IMG/VR virus record: IMGVR_UViG_2778261534_000003
Direction: 5' to 3' (one strand)
Length of the DNA stretch: 5,551 bases
DNA from: a virus
Taxonomy: Duplodnaviria > Heunggongvirae > Uroviricota > Caudoviricetes
How positions within the stretch are numbered: position 1 is the first letter of the stretch; each line of letters starts with the position of its first letter. The notes under the pieces are model-generated. The model did no database searches. It saw only the letters and a list, made by a program, of their open reading frames with translations, and was not told the origin of the DNA. Shown one piece after another: positions 1-5,551 of the stretch. Both the position numbers and the translations under genes were made by a program.

Positions 1-26
1 TGACAAGATGTGTATCTACCTTAACT

Positions 27-50
27 TAATGATTTTGATAAAAATCATTA
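27..50. repeat. 10-bp perfect inverted repeat (taatgatttt / aaaatcatta) with 4-bp spacer gata, 23 bp upstream of the recombinase fragment
   Basis: Read directly: arms at 27-36 and 41-50 are exact reverse complements. Reverse complement of 31-41 is TTATCAAAATC, which resembles (from memory, unverified) the TTATCAAAAAC half-site of Hin/Gin-family crossover sites. Function unknown. Confidence 0.4.
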
Positions 51-72
51 GGGGATTCATCAGTGCTTAGCA

Positions 73-366
73 TTGGGTGGCATTGACCTGACCAGTCCAA
101 CAGGAAAAATGATGATGCAAGTAATTTCAGCAGTCGCTGAATTTGAACGAGACCTTTTACTTGAACGCACTCATTCCGGGATAGTAAGAGCCCGCGGCGC
201 AGGGAAACGTTTTGGTCGACCACCTGTGTTAAATGAAGAACAGAAACAGGTGGTATTCGAACGAATTAAGTCAGGTGTAAGTATAAGTGCCATTGCCCGG
301 GAATTCAAAACCTCGCGGCAAACCATTTTAAGAGCCAAAGCAAAACTTCAGACACCTGACATATAA
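73..366 (+). pseudogene. 5'-truncated serine recombinase (resolvase/invertase family) fragment: C-terminal ~97 codons only (E-helix plus helix-turn-helix DNA-binding domain)
   Basis: Translation ([35 protein letters not shown]...[21 protein letters not shown]) matches the C-terminal half of Tn3/gamma-delta resolvase and Hin/Gin/Pin-type recombinases. The N-terminal catalytic domain with the active-site serine is absent. In-frame stops at 1-3, 22-24 and 49-51, and the other two forward frames are also closed upstream. The ORF would have to start at TTG (73). Confidence 0.6.
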
Positions 367-387
367 AAAATAATCTCGGTGTGAGAT
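361..387 (-). terminator. Weak candidate intrinsic terminator downstream of the stf-tfa remnant: 5-bp stem atctc/gagat (373-377 / 383-387) followed on the minus strand by a T-rich run (complement of 361-372)
   Basis: Hairpin and U-tract read from sequence. The stem is short and AT-rich, so this is tentative; it could equally serve the convergent recombinase fragment poorly. Confidence 0.25.
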
Positions 388-463
388 GCTTTACGTCTTC
401 CAAGCCCCCTTCCTTGCCGTAAATGGAAAGATACATCTAATTATAGAATTTATATGTTTTACC

Positions 464-601
464 CTACGGCAGTGCTGGCCATTCAATATCCGGTACTACT
501 GATGTATTAACACGGTTCAGCAACACCCGATACTTTTTCCAGACTTCCAGCAACGAAGTTTCTTCCTCCGTTGCGATTTCCAGCTCAACAACAGTCTGAA
601 C
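464..601 (-). pseudogene. tfa: 3' remnant of a lambda-type tail fibre assembly gene (Tfa C-terminal ~45 codons), in the same frame as stf and immediately after its stop
   Basis: Minus-strand translation after the stf TGA (638-640) reads [57 protein letters not shown], stop at 464-466. [31 protein letters not shown] is the conserved C-terminus of lambda Tfa as I recall it. No start codon or N-terminal Tfa region is present. Confidence 0.65.
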
Positions 602-637
602 GTACCAGGAACAGCCTCCTTCAGGGCTTGAAGGATA

Positions 638-1075
638 TCAATGTTCGCTTCCTGTTAACTGCCCGACAAGTGCAACCAGTTCGCTTACCTGATTTTCCAG
701 AGTGCTGATCCGGGTGCCTGCTGTTGCCAGATTTTTACGTAGCGTTATGTTTTCCTCTTCCAGCGCGGTAACGCGACCATCTGTTTCACGGGCGACCTGA
801 ACAAGTAACCCCGTCACGGCGGCGTAGTCAACATTCAGATAACGTGTTTCTTCACGTAATTCATTGCCGTCAACCGTTGGTCCCTGCAACTCTTCACCGT
901 AATGAGTAAACGATCCTACAGCTTCTGGTATCGCCTCCATTACTTCCTGTGCAATAACGCCAGCATAAGGCATCCCGTTTTCCCTGAGCGTGTAGGTGTA
1001 TCCGTTCATTTTACGGATTGCTTTCGTCGCGTCGCTGATAACGAGAATATCGTCTTTAAGGTCGCGGTCTGATGA
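638..1075 (-). other. Stf C-terminal intramolecular chaperone / autoproteolytic domain (peptidase S74-like, 'chaperone of endosialidase'), residues ~1058-1202
   Basis: SSDRDLKDDI has the Ser-x4-Lys dyad spacing of S74 chaperones. Hallmark blocks GVIAQEVMEAIPEAV and YLNVDYAAVTGLLVQVARE are followed by a coiled-coil-like tail, and the domain ends at the protein C-terminus as in endosialidase and T5 L-shaped fibre proteins. Confidence 0.7.
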
Positions 1076-4000
1076 CTGATTCAGCGTTGTGCAATTAATA
1101 GCGCCATTTACATCAAACAACTGGCCTGCTGACGTTTTTTGCGCATAAAACAGATACGCAGCAGACGTTCCAACCTCAAAAACGTTTTGTCGATCACTTG
1201 ATCCCCATACTTTTGCGGCAAATGATAGTTCTGTATTACCTAAGTTCTGTAAAACAAAACGATTGCCAGTCCCTGTTTGTTTTGTAAGAGTTAAATCAAC
1301 AGTTGAGTTAACCTCATCCTTGTTGATAGTGAGCGCCTGCGCTTTAGCCCCGTTAACAGCACCTGTTTTGAGTTGAACCGCGCCGTCATTACCATTTAAC
1401 AGTATCTCAGCTCCGCTAAAGAAATTTTTTAGCGACAGCATCTTACTTACGCCGACTGATGAACCCAACGCCCACGCGAGAGAATTACCGGTGCTATCAA
1501 ACCCACGTACAAAGCAATCCATTTTGCTATAGTCTGACGTGCTTCCAAGGACATCAATCCGCCCTCCGCCAGATTTTACCGGGTTAGATGTGGTTAATGA
1601 CCTGACAGCAAGATCGGTAGATGAATTGAGATCGTCTACTGTTAATAGTCGTTTCCATCCCTTATCAACCCCAGCCTCAAAGCTTCTTGCCCAAAATTTG
1701 GAGTTGCGACCGGCGAATTGTGTGACGTAATTACCGCTAAATTGAGCATGGAATCCGCCAACAACCATTGTTCCGTCAGGACCGCCTGCGCTCCCTGCTA
1801 TTGGCTTAAACTTATTTACATTCTCTGTATGTTGAGTGCTCCAGTTTTGCCCTGTGTGAACAACCAATCCCTGATAAGAACTGAAGGTACCATCAAGGTT
1901 AAAATTAAAGAACTTACTGTTCCCTGAATTATTTATGTCCCTGACAACAATTTCACCAGAAGCGTTAGCGGCCCTTAGTTCAGTTTGATCGACAACCGGA
2001 CCTCCTTCGGATTGTAATCTTTGAGAAACAAATGTTCTGTTTGAAGCGTCCGTACCGTACGCGGTGAAAGATTGTGTTGCTTTAATCTGACCATTGTTTA
2101 CAAATATAGGAATAGTGACGGTAAAATTTTTGTCAAAACTCAGGCCATTTGTTAATGCAATCCTTTCTGACACCCCTTGTCTGAACGGAAGGTTGCTGTA
2201 GAAGCCATGTTCACCGCCAGTGAAGTCAAGAACATTTTTAACAAAGTTCTTGTCGTTATCCTCCGTTGACGTTGATACACCAAACTTATATCTAACCCCG
2301 TTGTCACCAATTACGTAGTCTTCTGTTGGAACCTTAACTTTTGCCTTGTAGCCAGTTTGCACAACGACAGGAAAAGCGCTTTTATGGATGTAGAAAGCTA
2401 CATGCTGCGCATAATCTCTTTGCGACGCTTTAATGCAAAGTATCCCGAGTTCATTTTTTTCATAGCAAACAAATGACCCGTAAGCCACATCGCGAACGTC
2501 ACTCCAGCCACCACATCGAATGAACCCAAAAAATGAGTTACTATTAAGCGGATTTGATGCCGGACCTCCTGCTGTTTTTATTTCAACAGGACATAACATG
2601 GCACCGCTCCCATTCATTGCGGATGTGTCTATTATGACAGGGTAGTATTTGCCATCCACTGCACCACCAGGGGCATTAAGGGTCATTGCTTTTGTTAATC
2701 CACCCTCAGGGATTTGCAAATTAGTTTTGGCGTCATCAAGGCTATTTGCGCCAGTGCCACCATGAGAAACATCAAGTGGTATCCATTTTTTTTGTGTGTC
2801 GCTGTAACACCCCCATGTTGATCCGGTTAACCCCAGGCGCATGGATTTATCATGGTTATATAACCATGTTTCGCTATTCCATTGGTCAAGACGGTCCACT
2901 TCATTTTTGCGAGCGTGGCGTGTCCATTGCGGGCCTGTTGTCGGACTCCAGCGATAGGTATAAAGCGAGCGAGTAGTCCATCCCTGAAATACACCTGTAT
3001 ACGCTGGAGTTCCATCTACCTGACTAATAAACCCCGTAAGACTGCTTTCACCGGATGCAATAGACGGGAAACCTGTTGCATCAGCCATGATGCGCATAAA
3101 GCCAATATAACCTGATGGATTTCCTGAGATGTCAGAGCAACCACGCGGTGATGATCCCAAACCGATGTTAGTACCAACAATACCCTGGGCCTGGTTGCGA
3201 TAATTAAGTGCGTCCGCCGCAGATTTCGCCGCGTTTGTTTCACTGGATTTAGCATTAGTTTCGCTGGCTTTAGCGTTGGTTTCGCTGCTCTTTGCTGCTG
3301 CCTCGCTATTTTTCGCGTTGGTTTCTGATTTTTTGGCTGCTGTCGCGGAGTTTGCCGATGCAGTTTGTGAGTCTGCTGCCGCCTGTGCGCTGTTATCCGC
3401 ATTCGTCTCAGACGTTTTTGCGGCCTTCGCGGAATTTCCTGCCGCCGTTGCCGAGGAAGCGGCACTGCTGGCGCTCGAGGCAGCGCTCGTTTCTGATGAT
3501 TTTGCCGCCTCTTTTGAAGCCGACGCATCCCGGGCTGAGGTGGCAGCTTCTGACGCTTTCGTGGTCGCGGTGGATGCAGAAGTGGCTGCTGATTGTTGTG
3601 ATGCTGCAGCATTCGTTTCTGACGTTTTCGCCGCACCGGCACTGGTGGCTGCCGCGCTTTTTGAGGACTCTGCTGCGGCAGCACTTTTTAATGCTTCAGT
3701 GGCCTTTGTTGATGCCGTTCCTGCGCTGGAAGACGCTGACTGAGCCGACGACGCGGCCTGTCCGGCTGACGTGCTGGCTGCGCGTGCTGAGCCTGCAGCA
3801 TCAGTCGCATGGGTTGCCGCCTCACGGGCTGATGTGCTGGCATCGCCGGCTGACTTCTTCGCGGCTGCCGTGTCCTGTGCCACTGCGGACGCGTTACGCG
3901 CCACCTCTTCCACCATCAGTTCAAAACGGCGCAGTGCCTCCGGACGGGCATCATCCTCCGTCATGGCACCGAGAAAATCATTCAGCGTACCCGGTTGAGA

Positions 4001-4240
4001 ATCTTCATACACGGTGATGGTCCCGGCATGTGACGGCGGGAATCCCTCCACCAACAGAATAACGCTGTACTGGCCGTGCTCAACGTCCATGCTGTAACGC
4101 CCTGCTTCATCCGGATTTTCAGATGCCACCGTGTTCACCACCACCGTGGTGCTGTTACGTTTTGCTTTCAGCTGGATTGTGCAGTTCTGTACCGGTTTAC
4201 CTGCACCGTCTTTCAGTACACCTGAAATCTTTACTGCCAT
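638..4240 (-). CDS. stf: Side tail fibre protein (lambda Stf family N-terminus, Ala/Ser/Thr-rich shaft, divergent distal domain, C-terminal intramolecular chaperone)
   Basis: 1200-codon ORF. The N-terminus MAVKISGVLKDGAGKPVQNCTIQLKAKRNSTTVVVN... closely matches lambda Stf. ATG at 4240-4238 gives the lambda-like MAVKISG start; the ORF track's start at 4246 is a GTG two codons upstream. Possible Shine-Dalgarno GGGGTG just upstream. Contains a PLDVSHGGTGANSLDDAKTNL motif typical of phage fibre proteins. C-terminal 145 residues are an S74-type chaperone domain. Confidence 0.9.
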   Translation of the reverse strand: MAVKISGVLKDGAGKPVQNCTIQLKAKRNSTTVVVNTVASENPDEAGRYSMDVEHGQYSVILLVEGFPPSHAGTITVYEDSQPGTLNDFLGAMTEDDARPEALRRFELMVEEVARNASAVAQDTAAAKKSAGDASTSAREAATHATDAAGSARAASTSAGQAASSAQSASSSAGTASTKATEALKSAAAAESSKSAAATSAGAAKTSETNAAASQQSAATSASTATTKASEAATSARDASASKEAAKSSETSAASSASSAASSATAAGNSAKAAKTSETNADNSAQAAADSQTASANSATAAKKSETNAKNSEAAAKSSETNAKASETNAKSSETNAAKSAADALNYRNQAQGIVGTNIGLGSSPRGCSDISGNPSGYIGFMRIMADATGFPSIASGESSLTGFISQVDGTPAYTGVFQGWTTRSLYTYRWSPTTGPQWTRHARKNEVDRLDQWNSETWLYNHDKSMRLGLTGSTWGCYSDTQKKWIPLDVSHGGTGANSLDDAKTNLQIPEGGLTKAMTLNAPGGAVDGKYYPVIIDTSAMNGSGAMLCPVEIKTAGGPASNPLNSNSFFGFIRCGGWSDVRDVAYGSFVCYEKNELGILCIKASQRDYAQHVAFYIHKSAFPVVVQTGYKAKVKVPTEDYVIGDNGVRYKFGVSTSTEDNDKNFVKNVLDFTGGEHGFYSNLPFRQGVSERIALTNGLSFDKNFTVTIPIFVNNGQIKATQSFTAYGTDASNRTFVSQRLQSEGGPVVDQTELRAANASGEIVVRDINNSGNSKFFNFNLDGTFSSYQGLVVHTGQNWSTQHTENVNKFKPIAGSAGGPDGTMVVGGFHAQFSGNYVTQFAGRNSKFWARSFEAGVDKGWKRLLTVDDLNSSTDLAVRSLTTSNPVKSGGGRIDVLGSTSDYSKMDCFVRGFDSTGNSLAWALGSSVGVSKMLSLKNFFSGAEILLNGNDGAVQLKTGAVNGAKAQALTINKDEVNSTVDLTLTKQTGTGNRFVLQNLGNTELSFAAKVWGSSDRQNVFEVGTSAAYLFYAQKTSAGQLFDVNGAINCTTLNQSSDRDLKDDILVISDATKAIRKMNGYTYTLRENGMPYAGVIAQEVMEAIPEAVGSFTHYGEELQGPTVDGNELREETRYLNVDYAAVTGLLVQVARETDGRVTALEEENITLRKNLATAGTRISTLENQVSELVALVGQLTGSEH
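3212..3904 (-). repeat. Low-complexity Ala/Ser/Thr-rich coding repeat region of the Stf shaft (residues ~115-345), including degenerate tandem ~21-nt units encoding K(S/T)SETNA heptads (clearest at 3224-3340)
   Basis: Protein shows AAKTSETNA, AAKKSETNAKNSEAAAKSSETNAKASETNAKSSETNAAKSA. DNA shows reiterated tttagcgttggtttcgctg-like units at 3241-3330. The region is GC-rich and open in several frames. Confidence 0.6.
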
Positions 4241-4249
4241 ATTCACCCC

Positions 4250-4278
4250 ACAAAAAAGCCCGCCTGAACCAGCGGGCT
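4250..4278 (-). terminator. Intrinsic (rho-independent) terminator downstream of lom: 7-bp GC-rich stem (4257-4263 / 4272-4278), 8-nt loop, then a run of six T on the minus strand
   Basis: agcccgc / gcgggct are exact reverse complements. On the minus strand the hairpin is followed by TTTTTTGTG (complement of 4249-4257). It lies about 27 nt after the lom stop and about 10 nt before the stf ATG. Confidence 0.65.
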
Positions 4279-4304
4279 GTCATAACACTGTGTTACCTGG
4301 CTAA

Positions 4305-4904
4305 TCAGAACTTATAACCAACACCCACGATGAACCCGTCAGTGCGCCAGTCGCCACTGCCGGAGCCTTCATAAGCGACATCAATGGCCACCGATTCGGT
4401 CGGGTTAAACTGCACGCCAGCTCCCCACGCCAGAGACGTGTTGCTGTGGTGACCGTCATCACTTCCGGTCAGCACATCATGCGTTTTCCCCTTGTTGTCA
4501 GTTACGCGGAGATAATCCCCGGAGAAAGTCGACACACGGCTGTAAGCCACACCCGCCATCGCATACGCGCTGAACCATTCATTCACGCGCACAGACGGTC
4601 CCGCCATCACGCTGAACCAGCGGTTACGCACGGAATCCTCATGCCAGCGGGTATCGCTGTAATGCGTTTTTTGCTCATCTTCAGCGTTGGCATAACTGAA
4701 TGACGTAATCAGCCCCAGCGTGTCCGTAAACTCATAACGGTATTTCACGTTAATCCCGTTCAGATTATCGCTGCCGGGAGCGTTCGTACGGGCATGAAGA
4801 TACCCTGCGCTCAGTGTGGCCTGCTGCTCAGACGCCCATGCAGGCGCACCGGATACGGCCAGACAGATGGCTGCGGACAAAATGGCTGCATAAACTTTAC
4901 GCAT
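4305..4904 (-). CDS. lom: Lom outer membrane protein (Ail/Lom/OmpX family beta-barrel; lambda lysogenic-conversion 'moron' gene)
   Basis: 199-aa product MRKVYAAILSAAICLAVSGAPAWASE...GINVKYRYEFTDTLG...WRTDGFIVGVGYKF is near-identical in pattern to lambda Lom as I recall it. Has a signal peptide with an AWA-S cleavage motif and a C-terminal aromatic residue typical of outer-membrane barrels. Shine-Dalgarno GAGAGG at 4910-4915, 5 nt upstream of ATG (4902-4904). Confidence 0.92.
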   Translation of the reverse strand: MRKVYAAILSAAICLAVSGAPAWASEQQATLSAGYLHARTNAPGSDNLNGINVKYRYEFTDTLGLITSFSYANAEDEQKTHYSDTRWHEDSVRNRWFSVMAGPSVRVNEWFSAYAMAGVAYSRVSTFSGDYLRVTDNKGKTHDVLTGSDDGHHSNTSLAWGAGVQFNPTESVAIDVAYEGSGSGDWRTDGFIVGVGYKF

Positions 4905-4925
4905 AATTACCTCTCGCTTTTCTGC

Positions 4926-4952
4926 AATAAAAAAGGCGCCATTTCTGGCGCC
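4926..4952 (-). terminator. Intrinsic terminator between J and lom: palindromic stem GGCGCC (4935-4940 / 4947-4952), 6-nt loop, then TTTTTTATT on the minus strand
   Basis: Read directly: ggcgcc atttct ggcgcc, with the A-run at 4929-4934 on the plus strand giving a U-tract on the minus transcript. Begins about 20 nt after the J stop. Confidence 0.65.
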
Positions 4953-4971
4953 CGTATTGGGGTTATAAAAT

Positions 4972-5551
4972 TCAGCTGATACTGATGCCTGCGGTGGCTT
5001 TCTTCATCACCACAACCAGCAAATCGCTGATACTTGCTGTGGGATACCAGTCATTTACCAGCCATGCTGACACCGAAAACTCCAGCGTCATGTGGCCGCG
5101 ACCAGCTGGCATATCAATAACACCACTGTAAATCAGCGTATTATCCAGCGCGGTATGGTTATAAATTTCAGCACCGTTTTTCCGTACTATCAGGCGGCAT
5201 GAGGAGTAGATATCAGTATGATCTTGCTCATGTTTAGCGCCACTGAATGCCACCGCCGGGATAACAATTTGCCGGTCAAACGGCTGATCGTCATAAACCC
5301 TGACGGTAATGGTCCCTGATGGCCACCGCTCCGGTGCACGGGAGTCCCGGGGGAAAGCCTTACCCACTGTTTTGACAATATCACCTTCAATCTGGTTGGC
5401 TGACAGTTTCCCCTTAATCTGACAGTTCTCATTAATCGTGACATTGTTGAGCGTCCCGGCGTTCGCATTCACACTGCCACTGATATCTGCATTTTTAGCG
5501 GTCAGCTTTCCGTCTGATGTCAGGGAAAATACCGGAGGACTGCCACCGCTG
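4972..5551 (-). CDS. J: Host specificity / central tail fibre protein J, C-terminal (receptor-binding) portion; 5' end lies beyond the window
   Basis: The frame stays open from the window edge to the stop at 4972-4974. My translation of 5473-5550 continues [27 protein letters not shown] into [16 protein letters not shown]..., matching the lambda J C-terminal region as I recall it. The listed 166-aa ORF merely starts at an internal GTG. The extreme C-terminus differs from lambda J. Confidence 0.85.

Follow-up and report, generated by a model that had tools for sequence, protein, structure and literature searches.

The 5551-bp stretch of DNA analyzed here (the window) begins with the remainder of a serine recombinase gene that converges on the tail-fibre genes of a prophage. 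How this gene came to lack its catalytic part is the question raised by the locus. A first-pass annotation had read it as a decayed recombinase, left over either from a former fibre-switching system or from a transposon. The results described below make it very probable that this is the pinQ gene of a lambdoid prophage residing at the Qin (ydfJ) site of E. coli, and that it was cut by a recent insertion of IS10 at a hotspot.

The recombinase remnant and its intact counterparts

In a mechanical six-frame list of open reading frames the remnant appears as a 97-aa ORF with a TTG start (73-366, plus strand). When this ORF was compared with Pfam, only profile positions 102-144 of the 145 positions of Resolvase (PF00239) were matched (E 7e-10), followed by positions 1-44 of the 45 positions of HTH_7 (PF02796; E 1.4e-11, 44.8 bits against a cutoff of 23.8). 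Because of these partial Resolvase and HTH_7 matches, the ORF represents the C-terminal portion of a protein with two domains and not a stand-alone helix-turn-helix protein; an independent HTH family is contradicted by the end of the Resolvase domain that the fragment carries. The same Pfam result bears out the earlier description of a recombinase gene without its catalytic N-terminal part.

The extent of the remnant was established from Pfam, from identity to intact PinQ and from an alignment with the Gin invertase. It is a truncated 3' fragment on the plus strand (pinQ', window 64-366, with the stop codon at 364-366) and comprises codons 97-196 plus the stop. Residues 97-196 are identical to those of the 196-aa PinQ encoded at two intact loci (L001 and L004) and align to Gin residues 93-176. 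The recombinase sequence thus starts at window position 64, which is nucleotide 289 (codon 97) of the 591-nt pinQ gene, and not at position 73; the TTG at 73 is merely the first possible start of the listed ORF and corresponds to Leu100 in the intact protein. Of the catalytic domain, the fragment retains the last strand and helix E; these are followed by the GRPP arm and the C-terminal resolvase-type helix-turn-helix (HTH_7). The N-terminal catalytic domain with the serine nucleophile is present in intact homologues and absent from the window: Ser9 of Gin aligns with Ser11 of PinQ, which falls in the missing 96 residues. The first-pass description of a C-terminal DNA-binding half at 73-366 therefore holds for the truncation, and approximately for the word half, whereas the start has to be moved to 64 and helix E is retained.

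The intact allele is identical to K-12 PinQ at 194 of 196 residues, the only differences being R3Q and V159A, of which V159A is the one that falls inside the fragment. RefSeq annotates the intact gene as pinQ. Comparison with K-12 showed that the intact loci have the order ydfJ'-ynfT-ydfK-pinQ-tfa'-stf-lom-J, which is that of the Qin attachment region. The order in the window is pinQ'-tfa'-stf-lom-J, and the upstream part ydfJ-ynfT-ydfK is known from the loci with 100% identity rather than from the source genome. K-12 carries the same gene in the same ydfJ'-ynfT-ydfK-pinQ-tfa neighbourhood as PinQ and PinR (b1545 and b1374) of the cryptic prophages Qin and Rac. Compared with K-12 Qin, pinQ is here split at codon 97 by IS10, and the adjacent prophage keeps J, lom and a full-length S74-type stf, where Qin has only stfQ and tfaQ remnants. 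An identical PinQ is further encoded by the isolated lambdoid Escherichia phage HannyBb, in which the gene lies just past the tail-fibre genes and has integrase and tail genes as neighbours.

An IS10 end and its target site

The sequence to the left of pinQ' is not recombinase sequence. Bases 1-66 of the window matched 686 plasmid records; in 594 the identity was at least 99%, and the top listed matches were identical at 66 of 66 positions. In one of these plasmids (L002) the same 63 bp terminate an element of 1329 bp (1735-3063) that has imperfect terminal inverted repeats (CTGAGAGATCCCC, at the inside end, and CTGATGAATCCCC) and encodes a protein annotated as 'IS4-like element ISVsa5 family transposase', with its start codon 108 bp from this end. 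The element adjoins tet(B) and tetR(B), which is the context of Tn10. Because the 63 bp terminate this 1329-bp element in a Tn10 context, window 1-63 (minus strand) was identified from the plasmid matches and from the element end in L002 as the outermost 63 bp, or outside end, of IS10 (IS4 family; ISVsa5 in PGAP nomenclature). The IS terminus ...GGGGATTCATCAG finishes at base 63, and the body of the element with its transposase gene (minus strand) lies to the left of the window. A near-perfect palindrome, AATGATTTTGATAAAAATCATT, is located inside the IS10 end (window 20-50); it was also seen in L002 and is an ordinary feature of the outside end.

The hotspot consensus of IS10 is 5'-NGCTNAGCN-3', and insertion generates a 9-bp duplication (as quoted in PMC4574204). 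The last IS base (63) is directly followed by TGCTTAGCA (window 64-72, no strand assigned), a perfect fit to NGCTNAGCN, which was recognized as the IS10 target site from its fit to the consensus and its continuity in intact pinQ. By our own arithmetic, about one random flank in 4096 would match at all six specified bases. The heptamer GCTNAGC is found only twice in all 5551 bp of the window, and one copy is the one immediately next to the IS terminus. Intact pinQ is unbroken here and reads ...AGAGTGCAT|TGCTTAGCATTGGG, that is, ...AGAGTGCAT TGCTTAGCA TTGGGTGGC... across the target site.

The boundary was also seen in genome comparisons. A megablast search with window 1-700 against 5426 complete E. 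coli genomes gave 4800 matching records, the best of which begin at base 61-64; bases 1-60 were covered by none of these best matches. In the pinQ loci with 100% identity, homology starts exactly at position 64. The insertion sequence boundary that the first-pass annotation had proposed to look for upstream is therefore found inside the window, at base 63/64. The missing catalytic domain is not contiguous with the remnant either, as the IS10 end occupies window 1-63.

Based on these results, the following course of events is proposed. IS10, either as a lone element or as one arm of Tn10 within which the window opens, would have transposed by cut-and-paste into the perfect hotspot TGCTTAGCA at pinQ codons 97-99. 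Helix E and the HTH would thereby be cut off from the first 96-99 residues, among which is the nucleophile Ser11, and a second copy of TGCTTAGCA together with the other half of pinQ presumably lies beyond the IS. With respect to the identical terminal 63 bp and the perfect 9-mer hotspot in the flank, the locus resembles known IS10/Tn10 hotspot insertion mutants; nothing about it is unusual in comparison, apart from only one end being visible.

To the right of the IS, the locus shows no sign of ageing. The exact 1200-aa Stf protein (ATG start) of the window was indexed in 213 blocks of an assembly collection, of which 24 contigs were read and 10 places were listed. Nine of the 10 listed places with the same Stf have an intact 196-aa gene with Resolvase and HTH_7 domains alongside. 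Window 64-5551 is identical at 5488 of 5488 positions to three E. coli loci (L004, L006 and L011), all with an intact 196-aa recombinase, and differs by one mismatch from six other loci. Since not one base beyond the IS end separates the window from the three fully identical loci, in which pinQ is whole, the insertion is recent. The term 'decayed' does not fit a gene whose remaining 303 nt are, like the rest of the window, 100% identical to loci with intact pinQ; the comparison with intact homologous prophages that had been proposed as a check argues against decay with its identity of 5488/5488.

An independent insertion into pinQ was found in another assembly (L013, GCA_012482435.1). Here an IS66-family element with TnpA, TnpB and TnpC genes (14236-16955) is flanked by an 8-bp target duplication at about nucleotides 223-230 of pinQ, and the sequence on either side matches the intact locus at every position. 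The gene tolerates disruption, as seen in this assembly. pinQ has thus been struck repeatedly by mobile elements, by IS10 here and by an IS66-family element in L013, and its codons 97-99 (TGCTTAGCA) are a perfect IS10 hotspot.

Adjacent deletions and inversions are known to be promoted by IS10 and Tn10. In a variant of the proposed course, such an event would have removed or relocated the 5' half of pinQ, perhaps together with ydfK and flanking genes. The window shows nothing of the other side of the element, and a secondary deletion on that side would leave the visible junction unaltered. Simple insertion is, however, by far the commonest outcome, and the flank starts with the complete 9-bp hotspot, as is expected of a primary junction; the variant is therefore regarded as unlikely.

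Even less probability is assigned to the junction being a chimeric assembly artefact without any real insertion. Consistent with an artefact, the exact junction is absent from the 5426 complete E. coli genomes, the right IS10/pinQ junction gave no match in GTDB species-representative genomes or in JGI metagenomes, and the left junction, modelled with either type of IS10 end, gave none in JGI metagenomes. Furthermore, the window starts only 63 bp into the IS, like contigs that are broken at repeats, and a short, chimeric-looking contig breaks near the same place. On the other hand, a join at the exact last base of the IS to a perfect NGCTNAGCN hotspot is the signature of true transposition and not of a k-mer-mediated misjoin, and IS10 and pinQ share only three bases (CAG/TGC), with no other common sequence that could have mediated one. 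An IS end of 63 bp at a contig edge is also the remnant that an assembler is expected to leave at a repeat boundary, which is consistent with a real insertion.

The short contig mentioned above was the sole match in an exact look-up of the 97-aa ORF. It is a 516-nt ENA metagenome scaffold (L003, 1-516), in which unrelated phage-like DNA gives way to pinQ at window 61, almost where IS10 does; several bases at the transition are mismatched. The DNA that precedes pinQ has a match in just one E. coli genome, NZ_CP123310, where it falls within a hypothetical gene. This scaffold is probably a chimeric assembly, or possibly the product of a second rearrangement at the GCTTAGC site.

The fibre locus and the affinities of PinQ

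All genes to the right of pinQ' lie on the minus strand. The first is a tfa remnant (464-583) that consists of the C-terminal 39 codons plus the stop and was recognized by Caudo_TAP (PF02413) and by RefSeq. It is followed by stf (638-4240), encoding 1200 aa from the ATG and identified by PF08400 and PF13884, by lom for an Ail/Lom outer-membrane protein (4305-4904; from the ORF list and annotated loci) and by the 3' end of the tail-tip gene J (4972-5551), which is cut by the window edge and was assigned by comparison with intact loci. With the tfa remnant, stf and lom all on the minus strand, the first-pass annotation was correct in placing the recombinase on the opposite strand to the fibre genes and converging on them.

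Stf is composed of a phage_tail_N domain, Ala/Ser-rich repeats and a C-terminal Peptidase_S74 self-chaperone domain. For the version that starts at the GTG (1202 aa), no exact-protein record was present in the collection. The Ala/Ser-rich repeats are overlapped at window 3016-4017 by long ORFs in other frames, of 222 aa on the minus strand and of 155 and 241 aa on the plus strand; their low-complexity translations suggest that they are by-products of a repetitive, GC-rich coding sequence and not genes. Two related loci carry internal prophage deletions. In L009 (7656-9269) a 537-aa protein fuses minor-tail and J C-terminal domains, and in L011 (6000-9337) there is a gap between the tail gene U and lom. 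From these deletions, in prophages with the same stf and pinQ, it follows that the prophage is degrading in several independent ways across strains.

According to the first-pass annotation, the recombinase fragment and the tfa remnant together would be what is left of an inactivated fibre-switching system. In this reading, an old fibre-tip inversion system of the Pin/Gin/Cin type would have lost the N-terminal half of the recombinase and most of tfa by deletion or erosion. The arrangement of the genes accords with it: the recombinase gene is located just downstream of, and convergent with, stf and tfa, and a tfa remnant is present. The invertase genes of Mu, P1 and e14, the last of which was also inspected for its layout, have the same placement beside fibre genes. 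Against this reading stand the lack of any substitution in 303 nt or in 5488 nt relative to intact loci, a break that matches the IS10 terminus and the hotspot to the base, and the tfa remnant itself, which is unchanged where pinQ is intact.

The same 39-aa Caudo_TAP product was found in L006, L007, L011 and L012, all of which have an intact pinQ, and RefSeq describes it as 'tail fiber assembly protein, incomplete, missing N-terminus'. DNA homology to the pinQ-tfaQ region of K-12 Qin ends at window position 600, just before the end of the S74-bearing fibre gene. The truncation of tfa would thus reflect a swap of the fibre-tip module and not the loss of an inversion system, and it looks as if tfa became superfluous through this swap and lost its 5' part. 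Judged from the loci compared, the tfa remnant is older than the IS10 event. Since it is unchanged in loci with intact pinQ, the lesions in tfa and pinQ are unrelated.

Moreover, the fibre tip lacks flanking crossover sites. A search of the intact locus for inverted repeats bracketing the fibre tip yielded nothing convincing; the best candidates, of 14-37 nt with 70-93% complementarity, were scattered and chance-like. The crossover repeat of e14, TTGGTTTGGGAGAAGG, was absent from the window at up to three mismatches, and among the loci retrieved only e14 itself contained it. In this respect the locus differs from those of the Gin, Hin, Cin and Pin invertases, as it has neither an adjacent invertible segment nor crossover repeats. 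In known invertase systems the Fis-dependent recombinational enhancer is located towards the 5' end within the recombinase gene, a portion of pinQ that falls outside the window, and Fis sites are highly degenerate. A scan of window 1-800 detected no terminator between the convergent genes, and the promoter-like matches had weak consensus.

The known activity of PinQ is directed elsewhere. K-12 PinQ was reported to be active and to invert in trans the 1797-bp P segment of e14, which is the substrate of PinE (Kirigo et al., NAR 2025; PMC12529663). Inversion of this segment yields the chimeric StfE2, which blocks T2 adsorption, and natural inversions were found only in e14 and not in Qin or Rac (PMC12529663). 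Taken together, the identity to intact loci, the precise break, the shared tfa remnant, the missing crossover repeats and the restriction of reported inversions to e14 leave very little room for an old, decayed switching system at this locus, and the interruption of pinQ by IS10 remains the preferred reading.

For the affinities of the recombinase, scores against solved structures were compared. The fragment (window 64-363) scored 46.7 bits against the Gin invertase and 31.8-32.8 bits against the γδ and Tn3 resolvases. For full-length PinQ the corresponding values were 105 and about 82 bits, and for the canonical invertase PinE 312 and 95-112 bits. In its arm motif the fragment reads ...GRPP..., as in invertases, versus ...GRKRK... 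in resolvases. PinQ and PinE share 37.7% identity. From the Gin and resolvase scores, the arm motif and the identity to PinE it follows that PinQ and PinR form a lineage of their own. By these sequence measures they are somewhat nearer to the invertases than to Tn3-type resolvases and lie outside the tight Gin/Cin/Hin/PinE cluster. Like Gin, Cin, Hin and PinE, PinQ is a small serine recombinase that has an HTH as well as a GRPP arm and is encoded beside tail-fibre genes, whereas it fails to show the high mutual identity of the Gin/Hin/Cin/Pin (Din) family (105 bits to Gin, compared to 312 for PinE and Gin). In NCBIfam no family was matched at its cutoff by the fragment or by full-length PinQ, the best being the Mpi master invertase with 85 bits against a cutoff of 272, so NCBIfam yields no finer classification.

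The impression that the fragment is closer to Tn3-type resolvases than to Pin is thereby reversed: asked whether it is Pin-like or TnpR-like, the fragment scores higher with Gin than with the resolvases, and the intact allele and K-12 PinQ agree at 99% of their residues. An origin of the fragment from the resolvase (TnpR) of a Tn3-type transposon is next to impossible, because the common ground, namely the generic Resolvase and HTH_7 architecture and a homology to γδ/Tn3 resolvase that is detectable from helix E through the HTH at 32-33 bits (E about 1e-6), is outweighed by the higher Gin scores, the invertase-like arm, the prophage residence of PinQ in K-12 and, at 100% identity, in HannyBb, the position of the intact copy between ydfK and the tfa remnant of a lambdoid prophage without tnpA, res region or transposon ends, and the fact that IS10, the sole transposon present, carries no resolvase.

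One residue of intact PinQ stands out. In the gene at L001 (5716-6306), Cys76 replaces the conserved Arg of the active-site motif KLDRLGR of Gin and γδ resolvase, PinQ reading KLDRLGCNAMD where Gin reads KLDRLGRSMKH; a cysteine at this position is odd for a recombinase that is reported to be highly active. In pinE mutants the P segment was locked (PMC12529663), and PinQ may accordingly depend on PinE.

Fate of the remnant and consequences of the insertion

An outward-facing promoter of IS10, pOUT, reads through the end of the element that is seen here (Simons et al., 1983, as cited in PMC4574204). Because pOUT points in the direction of pinQ', the remnant could be transcribed, and transcription from pOUT may run into it. 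The frame that enters pinQ' from the IS has stop codons at window 1-3, 22-24 and 49-51; these close the frame, so no IS-encoded fusion protein is made. Candidate internal starts are TTG73 and ATG109, the latter with AGGA 3 nt upstream. A transcript from pOUT with internal initiation would give a catalytically dead PinQ fragment, which could occupy sites or poison subunits and in this way hinder inversion of the e14 P segment by PinE or PinR in trans. We consider this highly doubtful; if true, the insertion would be a modulator of a phage-defence switch and not a simple null.

Because the serine nucleophile and most of the active site are split from helix E and the HTH, pinQ is expected to be null for catalysis, and the pinQ' remnant by itself is predicted to be unable to catalyze recombination. 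The view that the gene had been inactivated therefore stands, with IS10 as the agent that cut off its catalytic part, and PinQ activity has presumably been lost in the source strain. A known gene (pinQ), a known insertion sequence (IS10) and a known target consensus make this an ordinary gene knockout. The correct label for the locus is pinQ::IS10, an interrupted pseudogene, plus an IS10 end, and neither a decayed invertase nor a Tn3 remnant.

Apart from correct annotation the finding matters little, other than in providing a clean natural null allele of pinQ. If the activity reported for K-12 PinQ (PMC12529663) generalizes, this allele would make its carriers natural nulls for pinQ. Such nulls would sit in an otherwise identical prophage background, for which the intact loci with 100% identity are a possible natural control.
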